A DNA stretch of 55,567 nt from an uncultured bacterium (GTDB lineage Bacteria; DYJV01). The DNA lies in NCBI GenBank assembly GCA_964543655.1, contig CAZIZE010000058.1:1-55567 (forward strand), read 5' to 3'. A model generated the notes under the pieces. The model was not told the origin of the DNA. It made no database searches and worked only from the letters and a program-made list of their open reading frames with translations. Both the position numbers and the translations under genes were made by a program. Positions 1 to 8,902 of the stretch are shown here, piece after piece (the stretch's first letter is position 1; each line of letters opens with the position of its first letter).

Positions 1-177
1 CTCCGATAATGTATCAAGGAAAAGTGATTTGCCAAATCTTCTGGGACGGGATAGAAAATAATACTTGCCTGAATTTATTAATTTATGAGCAAAACCTGTT
101 TTATCAACATATAAATAGTTTTCCTGGATTATTTCACTAAAGGTCTGCATACCTATGGGAAGTTTTTTTAAATTCAT
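1..177 (-). CDS. AAA-ATPase-like protein (predicted AAA-ATPase / PD-(D/E)XK family), 5' part, runs off the window edge
   Basis: Not in the ORF track. Manual translation from ATG at 177: [27 protein letters not shown]...[21 protein letters not shown], with the family-typical LPIG..F, YVDKT and Walker A RPRRFGKS motifs. Confidence 0.9.
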
Positions 178-183
178 ATTGAT

Positions 184-212
184 AAATTATCAGAAAATTT
201 AGGAGAATTCAA
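184..212 (-). promoter_or_regulatory. sigma70-type promoter, probably leaderless, for the AAA-ATPase gene
   Basis: TTGAAT-17 nt-TAATTT with extended -10 TG; only 6 nt between -10 and the ATG; no Shine-Dalgarno (SD). Confidence 0.5.
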
Positions 213-220
213 GATTTTAT

Positions 221-318
221 TAGTCATTAGTCGATAGTCAATTGTAAGGGTAATTCGTTAATTGGACTTACCAAATCCTAATTTAACTATAAACTTTGAA
301 CTGATAACTGTAAACTAT
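221..318. repeat. Heptamer tandem repeats flanking a degenerate REP-like palindrome
   Basis: TAGTCAT/TAGTCGA/TAGTCAA (221-241); imperfect palindrome GTAAGGGTAATT-CGTT-AATTGGACTTAC (244-271); TAACTAT/AAACTTT/GAACTGA/TAACTGT/AAACTAT (284-318). Confidence 0.55.
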
Positions 319-379
319 TTTGAGGTTTTTAGTCTGAAAAATCTTTTAATTCAAGGCTTTTTTGTATTATAATTTACCT

Positions 380-492
380 AAAAAAGGACTATAGCCCTTT
401 CGTCGGGGTAAGAGAGGTGGTTCTGCTCTTTCCCTGGCACTTCTCTGCAATTTGGAATCCACCCATACAAAGCAACCTCGAACTATAGTCCT
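380..492 (-). ncRNA. Putative structured small RNA (~110 nt rod-like hairpin), family unknown
   Basis: Perfect 10-bp terminal inverted repeat (385-394 / 483-492). Inner helices GUUG/CGAC, GGGUGG/CCACCU and UUC/GAA need G.U pairs that favour the minus strand. GC-rich island followed by a U6 tract; upstream promoter at 500-527. Confidence 0.55.
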
Positions 493-499
493 AATAGAT

Positions 500-527
500 A
501 ATTTAATTAATTTTTATAAAAAATCAA
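500..527 (-). promoter_or_regulatory. Putative sigma70 promoter of the hairpin RNA
   Basis: TTGATT-16 nt-TAAATT; predicted start ~492-493, at the first base of the stem. Confidence 0.45.
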
Positions 528-632
528 AAAAATTTTGCAAGTTAATTGTATTAATGTTTTGATAGAATTTTATTCGGTAATTTTCTTGAATTTACCATTT
601 CTATTTTTCAACTTATAATTTTAAATCATATC

Positions 633-710
633 CTTTAATTGCAAACCAAAACAATTCAAAACTAAGGACTATAAGCTAATACTTTATATCCCACAATTGG
701 GAGCTAAAAC
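633..710 (-). CRISPR. Mini CRISPR array: repeat - 19-nt spacer - divergent repeat
   Basis: R1 710-682 GTTTTAGCTCCCAATTGTGGGATATAAAG (TCCCA/TGGGA stem, I-B-like GTTTT...ATATAAAG ends); spacer 681-663 TATTAGCTTATAGTCCTTA; R2 662-633 GTTTTGAATTGTTTTGGTTTGCAATTAAAG (AATTG/CAATT stem). Co-oriented with and downstream of the cas genes. Confidence 0.7.
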
Positions 711-765
711 CCATTTGAGTATGATAAAAAAAATTAATATAACCTACCTCTTATAAAATTCATAA

Positions 766-776
766 TTTCAAAGAAC
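766..776 (-). promoter_or_regulatory. boxA-like antitermination element upstream of the mini-array
   Basis: GTTCTTTGAAA on the minus strand, 55 nt upstream of repeat 1. Confidence 0.45.
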
Positions 777-810
777 GTTTAAATTTTTCTCCAATTGTCA
801 GTAATGCATT

Positions 811-1068
811 TCATATTAAATTTTCAGTAGGATTAAAATCTATTCCTATGCTTTCTCTAATGATATTATTTTTATTGTCAATCCTAAAAAATATTACATA
901 GTCAAAGTTATTATCAATTATCCCTTCAGCGGATTTTTTTAATGAAAAAAACTTTGCTTCACTTAATTCTCCTTCAAACACCGACTTTTGAGTATGATGA
1001 AGATATTTTCTTTTGCAAACAAAATAGTAATTAATCTGGGTTCCTGTAATTATAAGATTTTCATACAT
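811..1068 (-). pseudogene. cas4/cas2: In-frame cas4'-'cas2 fusion remnant (most of cas4, all of cas1 and 5' cas2 deleted)
   Basis: N-terminus ITGTQINYYFVCKRK is a Cas4 start; the remainder YLHHTQKSVFEGELS...DYVIFF...ESIG is the C-terminal two-thirds of Cas2; directly follows cas3. Confidence 0.85.
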
Positions 1069-3231
1069 TTAAATAAAATTGTCAAATTCTTTCTGTTTAA
1101 AAGTAAGTCCGATTTCGGAATTATATTCTGCATTTATTGTAAAAATTTGATTTTTTAACCTGTTTGAAATTAATGCGGGAGAAAACTCTTTAATTCTATA
1201 AACAGGAACACTTAATGTAAATGAATTTATTTCTTTTAATGCTTTTATTCTTTCAATAACAGGTTTGGAATAATCAAGAGATATTGCAATCAATTGTTCT
1301 AATAGATTAAAGTTTTTCTTATAAATCTCAAAAGGAATTACTGAAACATTATAAATTTTTCTAAACAATTTCTCTGCTTCATTTTTATTTTCAGCTTCAA
1401 AGCCAAGTTCAAGGATATTTGTATAATTTTTGAACTTTTCATAAAATTTTGTATTTTTAATCTTTGACTCATTATAAATTTCATTCATTAAATTTTGCTT
1501 GTCATTTTCTTTTAAAATATTTCCATCAAATTTTAATAATTCATCTTTTGTAATAGCAACAATCTCTTTATCATAGATATATCCATTATCAGAAGGTGAT
1601 TGAGAGAAAATAAAAATATTTGGCTCACAATTTTTTGAAATTTTTCTTCCTTTTCTCCTGTAAATTCTTCCCATTCTCTGAGTTAGAGAGTCAAAAGATG
1701 CAATTTCTGTAAATAATACATCATAATCTATATCAAGTGATGCCTCAACTATCTGAGTTGTTATCCATATAACAGGGGTAGATTGTTTAAAATCGTTTAA
1801 AATCTCTTTTTCTTTTTTGTATCTGTCTTTCCATATAAACAACGAGTGAAGAAGTTTAACATTTCCAATATAATTTAATTTTTTATATAAAGATTGAGCT
1901 TTTTTTACAGTATTGACAATTATTAAAATTTTTTTCCCTTTTTTGTACAAATTTTTTATTAAACTAAAATCATCATCTATAAATTTAATTTTATGTTTTT
2001 CTTCCTTATTGAATACATGAGGCAGTATTTCACAATAATGTTCAAGTTGTGAAATTATAAAAGGGTGAATTGTTGCACTCATAAAACAAAATTTTCCACC
2101 AAGTTCAGAAATTTCTTTCAATCCTTTAATTATTACTGCAATAGTTTCTGGAGAGTAACTTTGTGGTTCATCAAGAACTATTTTGGAATAACTCATTGTA
2201 GCATAAATTTTCTCATAACCTGCATATTTAAATACAGCAGTAAATATCTGGTCAGCTGTTGTAATAGTAATTGGCATACTTAATTGCCTTGATAGTTTTA
2301 TATTGTTAATATGAATTTCAATTTCGTCATTTTTATCTATTTTATAAAAGATGCTTTCTCCATGAAGCAAGCCTATTGAATTGCTACCAAAAATCTTACA
2401 AAATCTTTCATACATGGCATTTACTGATACTTTTAAAGGAAGAACATAAAAAGCTTTATCATCACCTATCCAATTAATAGCAAATTCTGTCTTTCCCATG
2501 CCAGTAGATGCTATTTGAAGAATGCTTTTTTCTCTATATTTTGAAGCATTTTTCTGAAATTCTTTTAGATTAGATTTTAAATATGCGCATAATTTTTCTT
2601 CAAAATTTCTTATTTTTTCATTTTCTACAAAAATATGTGCAGAAGATGCATAATCAATTCTATGAAGAAAACCTTTTAATAATATAAAAAATTTTGATTT
2701 TTTAAGTTCTTTTACTCTTATAGATGAATTATTCTGATATTCAATTAATTTTTCATAATAAGAATCAAAAATTTCATTAATTTTGTACTGAGAGTAATTT
2801 GATAACCAGTTAAGATAGATTGTCTTTCTTTTTAAATCATTATTTATTTTTTCTTTTAACTCTTGTTCTGAAAAATTTATCTCTCTTGAATGATGAAAAG
2901 CAACTGCATAAATAATTTCTTCTATTTTATCTAAAATTTTTTTATTGTTTTTTATGTTTTTTAAAAAAGCAACAGATAGGAAATTATGAGGTATTTCATG
3001 TGGATAAAATTTGTTATTAATAATTTTGTTTTGAAATTCTTCTGAGATTTTACCAAGGTCATGGAATATTGCAGCAGTCTTTAGGCATTCATATAACTCT
3101 TCATCAATGTTATAATATTTTCTTAATATATCTATATTTTTTAAAAGCTTGTCAGTATGCTCTTGAATTGTTTCATATTCTACATTCCCATTTTTATAAA
3201 ACTTTTTTGCAACAAAATTTTTATATATCAT
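1069..3231 (-). CDS. cas3: CRISPR-associated helicase/nuclease Cas3 (HD + SF2 helicase)
   Basis: TIQEHT, HDLGK, PHN, AFHH, DYASS (HD domain); STGMGKT, DEPQ, SAT, QRMGR (helicase). Exact start (3231-3237) uncertain. Confidence 0.97.
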   Translation of the reverse strand: MIYKNFVAKKFYKNGNVEYETIQEHTDKLLKNIDILRKYYNIDEELYECLKTAAIFHDLGKISEEFQNKIINNKFYPHEIPHNFLSVAFLKNIKNNKKILDKIEEIIYAVAFHHSREINFSEQELKEKINNDLKRKTIYLNWLSNYSQYKINEIFDSYYEKLIEYQNNSSIRVKELKKSKFFILLKGFLHRIDYASSAHIFVENEKIRNFEEKLCAYLKSNLKEFQKNASKYREKSILQIASTGMGKTEFAINWIGDDKAFYVLPLKVSVNAMYERFCKIFGSNSIGLLHGESIFYKIDKNDEIEIHINNIKLSRQLSMPITITTADQIFTAVFKYAGYEKIYATMSYSKIVLDEPQSYSPETIAVIIKGLKEISELGGKFCFMSATIHPFIISQLEHYCEILPHVFNKEEKHKIKFIDDDFSLIKNLYKKGKKILIIVNTVKKAQSLYKKLNYIGNVKLLHSLFIWKDRYKKEKEILNDFKQSTPVIWITTQIVEASLDIDYDVLFTEIASFDSLTQRMGRIYRRKGRKISKNCEPNIFIFSQSPSDNGYIYDKEIVAITKDELLKFDGNILKENDKQNLMNEIYNESKIKNTKFYEKFKNYTNILELGFEAENKNEAEKLFRKIYNVSVIPFEIYKKNFNLLEQLIAISLDYSKPVIERIKALKEINSFTLSVPVYRIKEFSPALISNRLKNQIFTINAEYNSEIGLTFKQKEFDNFI

Positions 3232-3943
3232 CACCAATTAAATCAATAATTCTTCCAGAAGGCTCTTCATATTCATCAAAGAAGTATTTTCCATTTTGTA
3301 GGATTCCTTCGTCAATATAAACAACATCCTTTTTTTCAAAATATCTTAATAAAGTTTTTTCCAATAATTCTTCATTGTATTTGAAATTCATTCTGTAATG
3401 TATTCCGTTTAATCCTTCATTTTCTACAGTTTTTTTATTTAAATATATTCCATAATTTATAGAATGTGGATTAAATATATCAAAAGTTTTAATATCAGTT
3501 TCAATAAAATCCAAAAAATCAATTCTCGCTAAATCTTCTCTGCGGCCAAGTGATGGGTATTCTATTTTTAATAAATTTTCTTTAAATTTTTGTAAAAATT
3601 TTTCCTCTGCTTTTAAGTAGATAATAAGCTCTATATTAAAAATATTAGCAACATAAGTGGGTGATTTTGAAAAGACTTTTTTAAAGTTTTTTAACAAAAT
3701 CTCTCCTTTTTTATTTCTAACTCTGTCAAATTTAATTAAAGTCTGCATATCATAAACAACAGAAGAAAAATTTCCCTGAATACTCATTGAAAGAGGAATA
3801 TATTTATCAGCATTTATAACTGAATGAAACCATCCTCGTATTGTAGAAAGGGAAGGCAGTGGATATGTATCCCAAAAATTAAAACTCATTGGTTTACGAT
3901 AATTAGCAAAAATTTGATATGCTTTTATTTTTAGAATTCTCAT
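3221..3943 (-). CDS. cas5: Type I-B Cas5
   Basis: N-terminal ANYRKP...TYPLPSLSTIRG and SLGRREDL motifs. Confidence 0.95.
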   Translation of the reverse strand: MRILKIKAYQIFANYRKPMSFNFWDTYPLPSLSTIRGWFHSVINADKYIPLSMSIQGNFSSVVYDMQTLIKFDRVRNKKGEILLKNFKKVFSKSPTYVANIFNIELIIYLKAEEKFLQKFKENLLKIEYPSLGRREDLARIDFLDFIETDIKTFDIFNPHSINYGIYLNKKTVENEGLNGIHYRMNFKYNEELLEKTLLRYFEKKDVVYIDEGILQNGKYFFDEYEEPSGRIIDLIGDDI

Positions 3944-4287
3944 TTTTTCTTAATTAATATTTTTTCAATTTCTTGCAAAATAGAATAGCAGTCTATATTT
4001 GTATTTTCAAAAATATTTTCTTTTAAATGTTTATGATGTGGGAAAGTATATAAATGGGGATGATGTGGAGCATTATCCCACCGTGCAATTAATTCTCCAT
4101 TTCTATTTTGCAAATGATAGGAATAATTTCTTTCTTTATCATCAACAAATTCTCTAATAAAAAGAAGCTCTCCATTTATAAGCTCTGCTTTTATCTTTAT
4201 ATAGAATCCTTCTTTAAATAATTTAAAATCTGTAATATTAAAGTTTTTTATTATTTTTGATTGATTAAGACACTTTAATATCTGCAT
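3940..4287 (-). CDS. DUF6516-like putative toxin (TumE-like family)
   Basis: YSYHLQ..GELIARWDNAPHHPHLYTFPHHKH signature; overlaps both neighbours. Confidence 0.75.
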   Translation of the reverse strand: MQILKCLNQSKIIKNFNITDFKLFKEGFYIKIKAELINGELLFIREFVDDKERNYSYHLQNRNGELIARWDNAPHHPHLYTFPHHKHLKENIFENTNIDCYSILQEIEKILIKKK

Positions 4288-4525
4288 TTTCCAAATCTTT
4301 CAATTGAGTTTGTAATTCTTGATAATATTTGAAAGCAGCTTTCCATTCTAAATAATCATCCCATTTTTCAAAATTTTCTTCACTATTTTGAATTTCTTTT
4401 TCAAAATCTTTTAAAGTTGTTTTATACTTCTTTTCAAAAAATTTAATTTCTTCTTGAGCTTTGTGCAAATTGTATAAAATATCTGCAATAAAATATCTTT
4501 TTACTATTTCTTTATTGATTTTCAT
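4265..4525 (-). CDS. Small helical putative antitoxin partner of DUF6516
   Basis: FEKKY..TLKDF...EENFEKWDDYLEWK motif; SD GAAGGAG before ATG at 4525 (ORF track start 4555); overlaps the cas7 stop. Confidence 0.65.
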   Translation of the reverse strand: MKINKEIVKRYFIADILYNLHKAQEEIKFFEKKYKTTLKDFEKEIQNSEENFEKWDDYLEWKAAFKYYQELQTQLKDLENADIKVS

Positions 4526-5447
4526 TTTTTTCTCCTTCTTTATAGTAATTTTCAACTTCCATTTTTAATTTTTCAAAAAAATTATTAATACTTAAAACTC
4601 TATTATTTTCAATGAGTTGTCTAAAATTATTTTCATTAGCCCAATATCCATTTACATATCCAATGTAGGTTTTACTTTTTACAGACTTGTTATTAAATTT
4701 CATATCTAATGTTGATGCTAAGATTTCAGTATTAATACTATATTTTCTAATATCTTTATTGAATTCAACCTTTAATTTTCCAAGAAAATAAGGATTTTTA
4801 ACATTATAAATTCCACCAATAGCAAATAATGGATTTAAGCTTTCCATTCTACCTTTAATATTTCTATTTAAAATCTTAACAACATCCAAAAGCATATTTA
4901 TTCTTTTAATTTTTTCATCAGAGGAGAGTTTTATATTATCATTTTCATCAATACCAACCTTGTCAAGTTCAACAGTAATAGTGTAAGTATATAAAGAGGA
5001 ATGGTGTTCAAATTGAAATGGGTCAGGATTAGTCCCCACTCTTTGAGCAAAATTCAAATTAGTCCCAAATTCAATATCTGAATGCATTGGTTCAAGTGAA
5101 ATTGCAGGAGTTATTCTAACTACAGCAGGTCTTATAACTGAACCTTTATTTTTTTCTGTTTTCATATAGCCAAATAAATCTGCTTCAATATAATCTTTTA
5201 TAGTAGTTTCTGAAGCAAATTGGATTACCTGTTGGGCACTTGTTAAAGGCTCTTTTTTATCAGAATCTATATTAAAAGTTTCCTTTAACATTCTGTAAAT
5301 GTCATATCTAATAGCTTGCCTTGAAATATATGAGTATAGTTCACCACTTCTTGTTAATTTTTTTAATTCAGATATATTTCCTATTCCTTCTCCATAATTT
5401 AAACTCATTGCATCAAAAATTATTGATATGGTTAAGCCTCCACTCAT
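4512..5447 (-). CDS. cas7: Type I-B Cas7 (Cst2/DevR family)
   Basis: SLNYGEG.GNISELKK, YISRQAIRY, DLFGYM, AISLEP motifs. Confidence 0.96.
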   Translation of the reverse strand: MSGGLTISIIFDAMSLNYGEGIGNISELKKLTRSGELYSYISRQAIRYDIYRMLKETFNIDSDKKEPLTSAQQVIQFASETTIKDYIEADLFGYMKTEKNKGSVIRPAVVRITPAISLEPMHSDIEFGTNLNFAQRVGTNPDPFQFEHHSSLYTYTITVELDKVGIDENDNIKLSSDEKIKRINMLLDVVKILNRNIKGRMESLNPLFAIGGIYNVKNPYFLGKLKVEFNKDIRKYSINTEILASTLDMKFNNKSVKSKTYIGYVNGYWANENNFRQLIENNRVLSINNFFEKLKMEVENYYKEGEKNENQ

Positions 5448-5460
5448 TTTACTCCTCCTT

Positions 5461-5748
5461 TTATTGTTCTTTCCCTAAAAGTCCATTTAAAAAACTATAG
5501 CCAATTGCATAAAAATCGTCTAAATTTGATAATGATTTTATAAATATTGAAGGAATTTCCATATTTTGAGCCATATAAGTTCTCATTAAGATATCCATAA
5601 ATTGATTGATATTTCCTATCTTCAAACTATTAAGAAGTTTGTATGATATAGTTGTAAGTTTATTTTCAGCTTTAGTTTCATAATATTTTTTTCTAAGGTC
5701 TAAACCAATATGATAAATCTTCCATAATTGTTTTTCTTCAATTGACAT
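5461..5748 (-). CDS. cas11: Putative Cas11 small subunit from an internal in-frame start in cas8
   Basis: GAGGAGG SD (5755-5761) 6 nt before an in-frame ATG at 5748; 95 aa, MSIEEKQLWKIY... Confidence 0.75.
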   Translation of the reverse strand: MSIEEKQLWKIYHIGLDLRKKYYETKAENKLTTISYKLLNSLKIGNINQFMDILMRTYMAQNMEIPSIFIKSLSNLDDFYAIGYSFLNGLLGKEQ

Positions 5749-7074
5749 TTTACGCCTCCTCACAACTAATTTAAAAAAATCGTAAGTTAAAATATTTAAA
5801 ACTTGTAAATGATAAGAATTAAACCACTTTTGATAATAAATAGACCCATTTTCAACTGAGATAAATATTTTTAATAGCTTATAGATATAGCTATAAGATA
5901 CTTTATCTTCAACTATTTGTCTAATAAATTCTGGTAAAATATAAAAACTATCTTTAATTTTATAATATGTTTTTGATAAAGTTTTTAATTTTTCATAATA
6001 ATTTTTAAAATAAATGGCTTTATTCTTTGAAATATTAAAAGAATGTATTTTTGGGAAAACTTTATTTGTCAACTGCATCTCAATTATAGCAATATTTTGA
6101 AGAGAAAAAATAGCCTTTTGCTTTTCTATTTCAAGAATATATTGAGTAAAAAAGTCTATTAAGAAATTTTCTTGATTGTTTTTTAATGTTTCTTTTAAAA
6201 GTGCATTAGTAATATATAACTGTGAAATTGATGTGTCCATATTTACAAAATAATAACTGTTTTTATATGGAGTTAATCCAGCAAAATATGAAAAGTAGAT
6301 AATTTCACAAATTTCACATAAAGGCAATTTAGGAAAAAAATTCCATGAGAAATTTACATTATCTGAATTTAAACCAAAGAATGGTGATATTCCAGTGTCA
6401 AAAAAGGCATCTTTTTTCTGAAACCTTTCATTGCAATTCAAACAAATATAATGCTTATTCTTTTTGTTTGAATTTTTAGAAAGAGGTATTTCAAAATCAT
6501 TTTTAAATTTTTTAAGCCTCTCTTCATTGCAAGAGCGATTTAAAAAACTTTTTTGTCCATAAATATTTCTCAAATAAATTTGCACATCAGTTTCAAAAAA
6601 TTCTTGATAATTATCATCCATTACTTTGATAGCTTCCTTTAATTTATCAATTAGAACTTGATAGTTATTTATAACTGTTTTTTTATCTGGTAATCCTGAT
6701 AGCTTTTTCTTTAATAATGTAAAATTATTAAGAATGTTTTTAAAACTATTAAAAATTTTTACTATAATTTCATCCTTATTTTCCTTTAAATTATTGCAAC
6801 TTTTTAACAGCTCTAAATCATTAATAAAGTTGTAAAAAAGTGATTTTATATTTCCAAATCTCCCATACTGCTCAAATGCAGTTTTGAAAAATTTTTCTGA
6901 AAATCCTTTAAAAATATCTCTGCTAAATTCAATATAATTTTCTCCAATTTTTAATATACTTTCATCATTAGAAATCAATTTATTCTTTTCAATTTTAAAT
7001 AAATGATAATTAATATTTAAAAATCCTATAATCCCTGCGTTAAATAACCAATCATTTAAATAAACTCTTTCCAT
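5461..7074 (-). CDS. cas8b1: Type I-B large subunit Cas8b1/Cst1 (CxxC-CxxC)
   Basis: DWLFNAGIIG start, CLNC...CEIC, C-terminal Cas11-like domain ending AIGYSFLNGL. Confidence 0.92.
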   Translation of the reverse strand: MERVYLNDWLFNAGIIGFLNINYHLFKIEKNKLISNDESILKIGENYIEFSRDIFKGFSEKFFKTAFEQYGRFGNIKSLFYNFINDLELLKSCNNLKENKDEIIVKIFNSFKNILNNFTLLKKKLSGLPDKKTVINNYQVLIDKLKEAIKVMDDNYQEFFETDVQIYLRNIYGQKSFLNRSCNEERLKKFKNDFEIPLSKNSNKKNKHYICLNCNERFQKKDAFFDTGISPFFGLNSDNVNFSWNFFPKLPLCEICEIIYFSYFAGLTPYKNSYYFVNMDTSISQLYITNALLKETLKNNQENFLIDFFTQYILEIEKQKAIFSLQNIAIIEMQLTNKVFPKIHSFNISKNKAIYFKNYYEKLKTLSKTYYKIKDSFYILPEFIRQIVEDKVSYSYIYKLLKIFISVENGSIYYQKWFNSYHLQVLNILTYDFFKLVVRRRKMSIEEKQLWKIYHIGLDLRKKYYETKAENKLTTISYKLLNSLKIGNINQFMDILMRTYMAQNMEIPSIFIKSLSNLDDFYAIGYSFLNGLLGKEQ

Positions 7075-7075
7075 T

Positions 7076-7819
7076 TTAATTCCCTTGTTTAACTACCTCC
7101 AACATTCCAAAGCCTTGAGATCTTTTTGCTCCAATCCCTGCATCATAGAGCATCTGTAATATTTTTACTGGTGATTTTATTGTGATTATTCCTTTGTTTG
7201 CTATTTCATTTCCATAGAGGCTTACCTTTTTTGATTCAAATTTCATTGAAATAATCTCAAATTCTTCTCTTTTAAGTTCATAATTTAAAAAATTTCTTGA
7301 AAGCGATTTTACATTGTAAAATAGATTTTCTTTAAAATCTGGATGATTTGCCTTTAAAAAACCTTTGCCTTTTTTATTTTCAATATGTCTAACTAAAATT
7401 GGTGAAAGGGTTTTAAAAGTAACTGTATCATTGCTTATCTTTTTTTGTTTAATATAAAAAAAATCTCTTATTTCAATGTTATTGTTTAAAAAATTAAGTT
7501 TTTTACCTTTTAACTTATGAAGGCCATTATACACAGTGATTAAAAATTCATAAGAAAAAGATGAAAAAAACAGATTGATGATATTTGATGAAAGGACAAT
7601 TTTACCTTTTTCTCTTTGATTTTCAGCAACATGTAAAAAAACAGAAAAGGTGAAGGGTTTCTGCAAATTTTTTAATCTATTATCATAATACAAATTATAT
7701 ATAGCACTGTTTTCAGCAAGTATTGCTTCTTTAATAAGTGACAAGATATGTCTCCTGTAATTAAAAGGAACATAGAGCTTGTCACTTTTATTTAAATAAA
7801 TTTTTACACCAAATCTCAA
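7076..7819 (-). CDS. cas6: CRISPR endoribonuclease Cas6
   Basis: KPFTFS, TLSPI and C-terminal G-loop GIGAKRSQGFG; TTG start after AGGAG. Confidence 0.96.
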   Translation of the reverse strand: MRFGVKIYLNKSDKLYVPFNYRRHILSLIKEAILAENSAIYNLYYDNRLKNLQKPFTFSVFLHVAENQREKGKIVLSSNIINLFFSSFSYEFLITVYNGLHKLKGKKLNFLNNNIEIRDFFYIKQKKISNDTVTFKTLSPILVRHIENKKGKGFLKANHPDFKENLFYNVKSLSRNFLNYELKREEFEIISMKFESKKVSLYGNEIANKGIITIKSPVKILQMLYDAGIGAKRSQGFGMLEVVKQGN

Positions 7820-7885
7820 AAAATTCTCCTGTTTTTACATAATATTACCTCACTTTTCTTGATAGAATTTTTCCATGACCATATT

Positions 7886-8902
7886 TTACATATAATCCCT
7901 TATCAAAACTTCTGCTATTTGGACTGCATTTAAAGCAGCACCTTTTCTAACATTGTCAGCAACAACCCACATATTTATTCCATTTTCTATTGAAAAATCT
8001 TCCCTAATTCTACCAACATACACTGGGTCTGTGCCAGCTGCATCAATTGGCAAAGGATAAACATTTTCCTCTACATTATCAACAAGAACCACTCCTGAAG
8101 CATTTTTCATCAAATCTTTAACCTCATCTGCTGTTAATTTGGATTCTGTTTCAATATTAACAGACTCTGAATGGCCATAAAATACAGGCACCCTAACAGT
8201 AGTTGCAGTAACCTCAATAGAATTATCACCCATTATTTTCTTTGTCTCATTAACCATTTTCATCTCTTCCTTAGTATAACCATTATCAAGAAAAACATCT
8301 ATGTGAGGCAAACAGTTAAAAGCTATTTGATGAGGATAAACTTTTGAAACTATCTCTTTTTGATTGAAAATAGCAGTAGTTTGGTTGGCAAGCTCCTCAA
8401 TAGCTTTGTATCCACTACCAGAAACTGCTTGATATGTGGAGACAACTATTCTTTTAATCTTTGCTTTATCATGTATTGGCTTTAGAGGTACTACCATCTG
8501 AATTGTGGAGCAATTAGGATTAGCAATAATATTTCTATTTTTATAATTTGCAATATCGTGTGGATTCACCTCTGGTACAACTAAAGGAATATCTGGCTCC
8601 ATTCTCCATGCACTGCTGTTATCAATAACCACTGTACCATATTCAGCAGCAATTGGTGCAAATTCTTTGCTAATTGCACCACCAGCTGAAAAAAGAGCAA
8701 TTTCTACACCTTTAAAAGACTCTTTTTTTAGTTTTTCCACTTTAACCTTTTCCCCTTTAAATTCAACAACTTTCCCTTCTGACCTTTCTGATGCAAGTAA
8801 CTTAATCTCATTTACAGGAAAGTCCCTCTCTTCTAAAATCTCTCTCATTGTTTTGCCAACTTCACCTGTGGCACCAACAACTGCAACATTGAATTTTTTC
8901 AT
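7886..8902 (-). CDS. asd: Aspartate-semialdehyde dehydrogenase
   Basis: VVGATGEVG, IIANPNCSTIQ, STYQAVSG, DNVRKGAALN. Confidence 0.98.
   Translation of the reverse strand: MKKFNVAVVGATGEVGKTMREILEERDFPVNEIKLLASERSEGKVVEFKGEKVKVEKLKKESFKGVEIALFSAGGAISKEFAPIAAEYGTVVIDNSSAWRMEPDIPLVVPEVNPHDIANYKNRNIIANPNCSTIQMVVPLKPIHDKAKIKRIVVSTYQAVSGSGYKAIEELANQTTAIFNQKEIVSKVYPHQIAFNCLPHIDVFLDNGYTKEEMKMVNETKKIMGDNSIEVTATTVRVPVFYGHSESVNIETESKLTADEVKDLMKNASGVVLVDNVEENVYPLPIDAAGTDPVYVGRIREDFSIENGINMWVVADNVRKGAALNAVQIAEVLIRDYM

Follow-up and report, generated by a model that had tools for sequence, protein, structure and literature searches.

A putative TumA/TumE toxin–antitoxin cassette inserted between cas7 and cas5 of a bacterial type I-B CRISPR-Cas operon

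The stretch of DNA analyzed here, hereafter the window, comprises the 55,567 nucleotides (nt) of contig CAZIZE010000058.1 (assembly GCA_964543655.1), from an uncultured bacterium of the lineage DYJV01. Near one end it carries a type I-B CRISPR-Cas operon in which two small genes lie between cas7 and cas5; both are present on the minus strand in the open reading frame (ORF) calls, as the initial annotation of this DNA had it. We refer to the product of the upstream gene, 86 amino acids (aa) long, as p86, and to that of the downstream gene as TumE. The features of the locus, from the first gene of the operon onward, are listed below with the match or evidence on which each assignment rests.

7076–7819, minus strand: cas6, first gene of the operon (TIGR01877, 3.4e-28; PF01881, 4.2e-23).
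5461–7074, minus strand: cas8b1/cst1 (TIGR01908, 1.6e-75).
4512–5447, minus strand: cas7/cst2, 311 aa (TIGR02585, 4.6e-85, the whole model matched by residues 8–301).
4532–4537, minus strand: AAGGAG, Shine-Dalgarno sequence of the antitoxin gene within the cas7 tail, 6 nt ahead of the ATG at 4525 (read from the sequence).
4265–4525, minus strand: p86, putative antitoxin of TumA type (MJ0235-like), 86 aa, three helices (partner conservation, AlphaFold2 [AF2] model, complex model).
3940–4287, minus strand: TumE (PF20126, formerly DUF6516), putative translation-inhibiting toxin, 115 aa (PF20126, 2.2e-22).
3944–4534, minus strand: inserted cassette, approximate extent, ~591 nt (junction alignments with genome G005 and insert-free Aquificota operons).
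3221–3943, minus strand: cas5b, 240 aa (TIGR01895, 9.5e-55, model covered from position 1); its ATG overlaps the TumE stop codon (ATGA).
1069–3237, minus strand: cas3, HD nuclease and helicase (TIGR01587, 1.7e-73; TIGR01596, 1.7e-22).
811–1068, minus strand: 85-aa ORF, remnant of the adaptation module with a cas4-like N-terminus and a cas2 C-terminus (PF09827 Cas2, 3.4e-11, on residues 18–67).
682–710, minus strand: single CRISPR repeat, with one mismatch to the repeat of G005.

All of the effector genes (cas6, cas8b1, cas7, cas5, and cas3) are intact by NCBIfam models, of the Cst/Tneap-like type I-B, and comparable in length to those of G005, a genome of the same order. The junctions around the two small genes overlap exactly as the initial annotation had claimed, by 14 nt between cas7 and p86 (4512–4525), by 23 nt between p86 and TumE (4265–4287), and by the ATGA shared between TumE and cas5 (3940–3943). 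The p86 ORF spans 4265–4555 when read from a TTG at 4555; the ATG at 4525, which yields the 86-aa product, is favored because AAGGAG lies 6 nt upstream of it and homologs are ~86 aa long.

The downstream gene product matches Pfam family PF20126 at 79.3 bits against a cut-off of 23.4 (E = 2.2e-22), with residues 35–110 aligned to positions 2–79 of the 81-position model, and also matches PADLOC profile PDC-M44B at 1.7e-17. Across 84 homologs, and in the numbering of the window protein, Y55 and the RWDNAPHH stretch (R69, W70, D71, N72, A73, P74, H75, and H76) are invariant, and P83, H85, and H87 are kept in at least 90%; the window TumE carries every invariant residue. Its AF2 model (predicted local distance difference test, pLDDT, 93.6) places a helix at residues 2–9, seven to eight strand segments, and a second helix at 100–114, in agreement with the published fold of two helices on a seven-stranded antiparallel sheet (PMC10584680). 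Among solved structures, the TumE profile found no sequence match at E ≤ 1, and Foldseek returned nothing at E ≤ 0.001 for the predicted fold, the best VIA-wide Z of 6.5 being below the meaningful level. The TumE-TumA family was defined by Durairaj et al. (2023), in whose account DUF6516 usually lies downstream of a small partner gene; six gammaproteobacterial TumE/TumA pairs were toxic and neutralized in E. coli, and one TumE toxin lowered methionine incorporation (PMC10584680).

The upstream partner is conserved in its position. Of 159 related loci, 120 have a p86 homolog immediately ahead of TumE in the same orientation; among the 143 loci with 300 nt or more of upstream sequence, 116 do. 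The two genes usually overlap by an estimated 15–22 nt. The AF2 model of p86 is a three-helix hairpin (pLDDT 91.2), and all invariant antitoxin residues are kept in the window protein. PADLOC PDC-M44A is matched at 8.6e-9 by an upstream ORF of related locus L074, and NCBIfam TumA (NF045776) is matched weakly by 7 of 84 relatives (best E 5.8e-4), with no match for the window p86. ESM Atlas clusters near p86 carry PF27273 ("MJ0235") on 18–49% of their members, and a search of solved structures with the p86 profile returned only six chance-level rows (best E 0.038). Pairwise identities of p86 and TumE are correlated across the 84 loci (r = 0.84; the highest value from 200 shuffles was 0.13), which is weak evidence because linked genes share a history.

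Modeling of the two proteins together gave a complex with a score of 0.80, as compared with 0.00 for the best of three controls; the three runs agree in their contacts, and the pLDDT of the partner is 86. Among reference pairs, 116 of 157 solved complexes and 2 of 215 mismatched pairs attained that mark. The modeled interface involves toxin residues 55, 69, 71, and 73–76 and p86 residues 55–56, 58–60, and 62–64, such that the conserved p86 stretch W55-D56..E60-W61..A63 (a WDD..EW motif) sits on the RWDNAPHH region of the toxin. These models support binding of p86 to TumE and suggest that p86 neutralizes the toxin by covering its conserved site. Together with the family match, the conserved motif, the predicted fold, and the conserved upstream partner, a complex model that exceeds its controls bears out the initial description of a TumE-type TA-like (toxin–antitoxin-like) pair; the two genes are thus probably a type II TA cassette, with p86 as the cognate small helical antitoxin.

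Comparison with related operons indicates that the pair was inserted between genes that are normally adjacent, as the initial annotation had proposed. The cas7 and cas5 genes of G005 directly overlap; its Cas7 is 72% identical, and its operon has all eight genes together with an array of eight repeats. Of 178 genomes, 67 gave matches, from which 30 Aquificota loci with a Cst2-type cas7 were taken, 29 of them with a cas5 match; in 26 of these 29, the estimated gap from cas7 to cas5 is 32 nt or less and holds no insert. Junction alignments with G005 and with the insert-free Aquificota operons show a ~591-nt cassette in place of a cas7-cas5 spacer of ~5–10 nt. The tail of cas7 departs from its relatives after ..NYY, and its last 10 codons run through the ribosome-binding site and start region of the cassette to the stop at 4512. 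On the other side, cas5 is without the GGAG found ahead of its G005 counterpart and starts on the TumE stop codon. Cas7 and Cas5 nonetheless still span their full family models. A search for terminal repeats or insertion sequence (IS) ends flanking the pair gave low-complexity matches only. The cassette appears to have been inserted scarlessly, without visible mobile-element ends and bringing its own ribosome-binding site, such that both neighbors would stay translatable.

Contigs bridging the junctions are present at ~99% identity in three public hydrothermal-vent metagenome runs, here X1, X2, and X3, which derive from three studies dated 2017–2025; the source sample may be among these runs. 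The bridging contigs are record 5 of X1 (window positions 3427–4863), records 12 and 13 of X2 (3427–4078 and 4085–4819), and record 20 of X3 (4179–4658); remaining contig joints relative to the window mostly have sides of fewer than 30 letters and were left out. Because contigs of three runs bridge the junctions, an assembly artefact is ruled out as the source of the arrangement.

The initial annotation had taken uniqueness of the insertion to this genome as a mark of a neutral passenger. As a phenomenon it is not unique: pairs of the same family occur at other cas junctions, and other TA families occur at this one. In three Aquificota operons (L186, L187, and L188), the cas7-cas5 gap is long (514–609 nt) and is occupied by other TA genes. 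That of L186 contains a Phd/YefM antitoxin (1.1e-8) and a YafQ/RelE-like toxin (2.4e-7). In L187, a RelB antitoxin (2.9e-14) precedes what by eye is the C-terminal two thirds of that Phd gene, and a toxin is absent. L188 keeps fragments of the Phd-YafQ pair, and its cas5 match does not start before residue 85. A quick Cas7 tree places the window, G005, and 11 Aquificota operons together in a single clade (SH-aLRT 88), and 4 of these 13 operons have TA genes or their remnants between cas7 and cas5. The presence of TA genes at this junction requires three changes on the tree, at least two of which are forced by well-supported branches. The cas7-cas5 junction of this operon clade thus appears to be a recurrent landing slot for TA cassettes.

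TumA/TumE pairs were also found at two other cas junctions. Between cas4 and cas1, a pair is present in L002 (a Persephonella sp. metagenome-assembled genome, MAG), where the antitoxin is truncated and cas1 is split, and, intact, in L168/L185 (G177), beside a seven-repeat array; because the Cas4 proteins of the two are 99.4% identical, these insertions are counted as one event. Both belong to the TumE clade of the window pair in a quick TumE tree. A more divergent TumA/TumE pair lies between cas3 and cas4 in locus L093; a 21-nt palindrome occurs in three copies around it, and the pair adjoins an IS200-like Y1 transposase (PF01797, 3.6e-9). Positions 880–2340 of L093 resemble a REP/RAYT-type cluster, which suggests one possible route by which such pairs move.

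Several of these and other related loci combine TA genes in further ways. L185 (G177:C1, 8594–18569) has a CcdA-like antitoxin and PIN toxin between cas5 and cas3 in addition to TumA/TumE between cas4 and cas1, with its array in the middle of the locus; two small ORFs (111 and 54 aa) between cas7 and cas5 of G177 (L185, 16303–16795) were considered by eye as MNT/HEPN remnants and dropped, as they have no Pfam match. At L130 (6252–9421), a TumA-like gene and TumE directly follow HsdS and a 106-aa ResIII fragment, and the TumE stop overlaps the start of a 367-aa ORF that matches no known family. In two Thermococcus-type loci (L033, 3982–4977; L103, 920–1921), a CARF-PIN protein (PADLOC CARF_m1--CARF_PIN, 1.4e-14 and 2.9e-16, respectively) adjoins TumA/TumE. 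L007 (1–4200; a Desulfamplus sp. MAG) is a tandem TA block with three p86 matches ~1950 nt apart and PIN-domain genes between them; the TumE gene by the middle p86 copy matches PF20126.

Transcription of the pair together with Cascade is plausible, because the junctions overlap, no terminator-like site was found in 600–8300, and promoter-like hexamers (for example, 4576->4548) are not in excess of expectation (65 found, 55.8 ± 7.5 in shuffles), though promoter and terminator scans are uninformative in such A+T-rich DNA; no RNA run was among those listed for 3200–5500. The initial annotation held that there is no room for a separate promoter; this stands for intergenic space, since the genes overlap, but not for the interior of cas7, where a promoter could lie.

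Taken together, these data are best accounted for by a selfish TA cassette that is mainly a hitch-hiker, with stabilization of Cascade as a by-product, and that is not a Cascade subunit; we regard this as the probable explanation. Under it, the pair would be read from the cas promoter within the Cascade message and translationally chained to cas7 and cas5, and p86 would cover the RWDNAPHH site and keep TumE silent. Should p86 be less stable than TumE, as antitoxins of classical type II systems are, TumE would be set free once this stretch is lost or shut off and, by analogy with validated family members, would block protein synthesis. The cassette would thereby resist its own deletion, as other chromosomal type II modules do, and the surrounding Cascade genes would become harder to delete.

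Several observations weigh against this explanation. A promoter may lie inside cas7. The profile and structure searches that the initial annotation had called for placed the toxin in PF20126 and found no solved relative, but p86 has no match in the Pfam release searched, nor does it match PADLOC PDC-M44A at 1e-6. TumE scores 58.9 bits against the NCBIfam equivalog NF045777, below the cut-off of 90, and so falls outside the experimentally validated subcluster. The association with cas genes is also infrequent. The survey of DUF6516 genes inside cas operons suggested earlier did recover the pairs at cas4|cas1 and cas3|cas4, but across 175 loci (159 related loci and 16 further Aquificota places) cas genes lie beside the pair in at least 3, representing two independent events, and 172 are not beside cas genes. 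The screens behind this count were of uneven sensitivity. Every locus was searched by tblastn with a set of type I-B Cas proteins; for L001-L025, ORFs up to 4 kb away were compared with Pfam; for L026-L164, the closest ORF on either side was run against PADLOC, with positive Cas7 and Cas5 controls; and in 17 Aquificota loci, PADLOC was applied to ORFs no more than 1.5 kb away. Because the screens differ and many contigs are short, three is a lower bound. An enrichment of TumE pairs beside cas genes above chance is suggestive at best.

The toxin also seems dispensable in at least one strain, because one X1 contig (depth 7.8) is without the 16 nt at 4233–4248, which frameshifts TumE after codon 13 and brings a stop at about codon 24, with p86 intact; the deletion is absent from the X2 and X3 contigs. 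A further point against lies in the state of this CRISPR-Cas copy, whose adaptation genes were lost despite any stabilizing effect. About 2.9 kb downstream of the cassette, where G005 has cas4-cas1-cas2, the adaptation genes are collapsed to the 85-aa ORF. Its first ~20 residues resemble the start of G005 Cas4 (by eye) and its last ~68 appear to come from Cas2; most of cas4, the whole of cas1, and the beginning of cas2 were thus apparently removed by an in-frame deletion. The CRISPR repeat at 682–710 is the sole copy in the 2.26-Mb assembly. The idea that a solo repeat implies an absence of CRISPR RNA is weakened by an X1 contig that shows repeat, 36 nt, and repeat at this site. Another X1 contig tracks window positions 682–1008, with 141 of its 468 letters not aligned to the window. 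The array may have been collapsed during assembly, or some of the cells may still have spacers and a cas2 without the deletion. Elsewhere in the genome, a second CRISPR system is indicated by terminal arrays on contigs C6 and C65, whose 30-nt repeat differs from the one above and resembles that of the G177 array, and by cas1-cas2 on contig C19 (46% identical to G005 Cas1).

It is possible but unlikely that the pair is instead a dedicated guard or backup wired to Cascade expression, in which phage, an anti-CRISPR, or a deletion would cut off the antitoxin and TumE would halt translation, as abortive infection or addiction; the pair would then be a protein analog of CreTA, or of PrrC within its restriction system. 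The overlaps at three junctions and the loss by cas5 of its own Shine-Dalgarno sequence in favor of the TumE stop codon would fit such wiring, as would the occupation of the cas7-cas5 junction by different TA families in related operons. TumE-like pairs are moreover the PADLOC candidate PDC-M44, and PrrC and BrxU are named as embedded backups in the text of bioRxiv 10.1101/2024.01.29.577857; the L130 pair adjoins HsdS and a ResIII fragment. However, the majority of homologous pairs are solitary or have other TA genes as neighbors, decay of TA copies at cas junctions is seen in L187, L188, and L002, and TumE is frameshifted in one strain variant. The frameshift, the lost adaptation module, and the 172 of 175 loci away from cas genes also speak against a strongly selected role. 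With the adaptation genes lost and spacers missing in the assembly, little immunity may remain for the pair to back up. These same signs of decay (the 85-aa fusion ORF, the single repeat, the 16-nt TumE deletion, and TA remnants between cas7 and cas5 elsewhere) would suit a neutral passenger in a decaying locus, whose overlaps are accidental and which has no effect on CRISPR-Cas. The L093 pair amid REP-like palindromes and an IS200-like Y1 transposase, and the occurrence of TumE on 10 plasmids and one archaeal provirus, would suit it too. We nevertheless consider a purely neutral passenger rather improbable, as cas6, cas8b, cas7, cas5, and cas3 are intact, with Cas7 and Cas5 covering their models fully; toxin and antitoxin keep all invariant residues; the scarless insertion leaves both neighbors translatable; and the arrangement persists at ~99% identity in the runs of three studies over 2017–2025. 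The occurrence of three TA families between cas7 and cas5, in 4 of the 13 related operons, likewise exceeds a single accident.

A very improbable alternative is that the two proteins are accessory Cascade components, p86 being a Cas11-like small helical subunit and TumE an associated nuclease. Their position between cas7 and cas5 and the small, helical character of p86 speak for this, and type I-B operons are not known to have a separate cas11 gene. Against it, the two genes form a module in 120 of 159 loci and have cas genes beside them in only 3 of 175; G005 and 26 of 29 related operons have no gene at the junction, and other operons have unrelated TA pairs there. A role for p86 as a Cas11-like subunit was rejected on the distribution of p86 and of insert-free junctions. 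A hitch-hiking cassette with a stabilizing by-product remains the preferred account.

Two further features of the window bear on the surroundings of the operon. The gene cas6 begins 66 nt past asd, a housekeeping gene on the same strand (7820–7885 between them), with a G+C content of 35%, as compared with 22–26% for the cas genes; because the latter is so far below that of asd, the whole cas block looks like an acquired insert in a row of housekeeping genes. The cassette itself (22–24%) resembles the cas genes, and the genome as a whole is at 29.7%. Beyond the other end of the operon, 370–510 contains a G+C-rich stretch of ~110–140 nt in very A+T-rich intergenic DNA, flanked by CTATAGTCC-like words and single-copy in the genome. 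This stretch could be a structured RNA; Rfam returned nothing in the window at gathering score and nothing in 1–8000 at E ≤ 1.

Pairs of TA genes inside cas cassettes are already known, and the window pair is a new example of a known habit, not a new kind of system. A search of titles and abstracts found no paper tying TumE to cas operons. The pair resembles published TumE-TumA in its PF20126 match, fold, small upstream partner (~80–90 aa), bicistronic order, and predicted binding (PMC10584680). It differs in falling below the equivalog cut-off, in having a partner family with only scattered weak TumA matches (7 of 84), and in being embedded in a cas operon without intergenic room for a promoter. 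PDC candidates were derived from cassettes embedded in multi-gene defense operons (Payne et al. 2024, bioRxiv 10.1101/2024.01.29.577857; PADLOC-DB v2), an architecture like that of the window pair. Of PDC-M44, a candidate defense system, the B component is matched here, whereas the A component is not matched by p86 at 1e-6. The terms "CRISPR-Cas", "PDC-M44", "TumE", and "DUF6516" are absent from the text of that preprint, supplements aside.

The closest precedent in habit is found in the Sulfolobales, where vapBC pairs are interspersed in cas cassettes, sometimes several in each, and a maintenance role has been proposed (PMC4390879, Garrett et al. 2015; PMC3973734, Vestergaard et al. 2014). 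These are likewise type II TA pairs between cas genes of thermophiles, and the G177 locus, with its CcdA-like/PIN and TumA/TumE pairs, is of the same kind. However, the Sulfolobales toxin is a PIN protein in an archaeal type I-A/III setting, as opposed to TumE in a bacterial type I-B operon, and the passages on vapBC in those two papers describe neither the recurrence of different TA families at one junction nor chained overlaps. CreTA, an RNA toxin–antitoxin pair that guards type I Cascade genes and whose antitoxin needs Cascade to repress the toxin (PMC9458426, PMC8730458), is also a small TA nested in a type I cas locus and proposed to make Cascade hard to lose. Whereas CreTA is RNA-based and Cascade-dependent, the window pair consists of two conserved protein-coding genes with no indication of Cascade dependence, and no extra copy of the CRISPR repeat, of the sort that a CreTA-type repeat-like RNA would show, lies in or near it. 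PrrC, an anticodon nuclease, is likewise a translation-directed toxin inside a defense operon, that of the EcoprrI type I restriction system, and serves as a backup when the host system is inhibited (bioRxiv 10.1101/2024.01.29.577857); the guard explanation is modeled on it. PrrC is held inactive by the restriction enzyme itself, whereas the window pair has a dedicated putative antitoxin and no indicated link to a Cascade protein. New here are the involvement of TumE in such a role, its occurrence in a bacterial type I-B operon, the chaining of genes by overlaps, and the occupation of one junction by three TA families across a clade of related operons.

If the pair is a mere hitch-hiker, it would be a clean natural example of cas operons as sinks for TA cassettes, extending the case of Sulfolobales vapBC to bacteria and to TumE. 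If it guards the operon, it would represent a simple protein-based way to keep costly immune operons from loss or silencing, and would suggest a function for this TumE clade. A bolder and rather doubtful generalization is that small promoter-less TA cassettes (TumA/TumE here, Phd-YafQ or RelB-type in sister operons) act as interchangeable operon guards in a fixed slot of defense operons. Translationally chained between cas7 and cas5, such a cassette would meter Cascade expression as a protein counterpart of CreTA: once a phage, an anti-CRISPR, or recombination shut off or deleted the Cascade genes, the antitoxin would be depleted and the toxin would arrest translation. If true, this would explain both the convergence of TA families on one junction and the presence of TumE-like pairs inside other defense operons. 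With three TA families at cas7|cas5 in one clade, the question can be addressed in natural variants of the operon, namely those free of a cassette, those carrying TumA/TumE or Phd-YafQ, and those left with decayed remnants.

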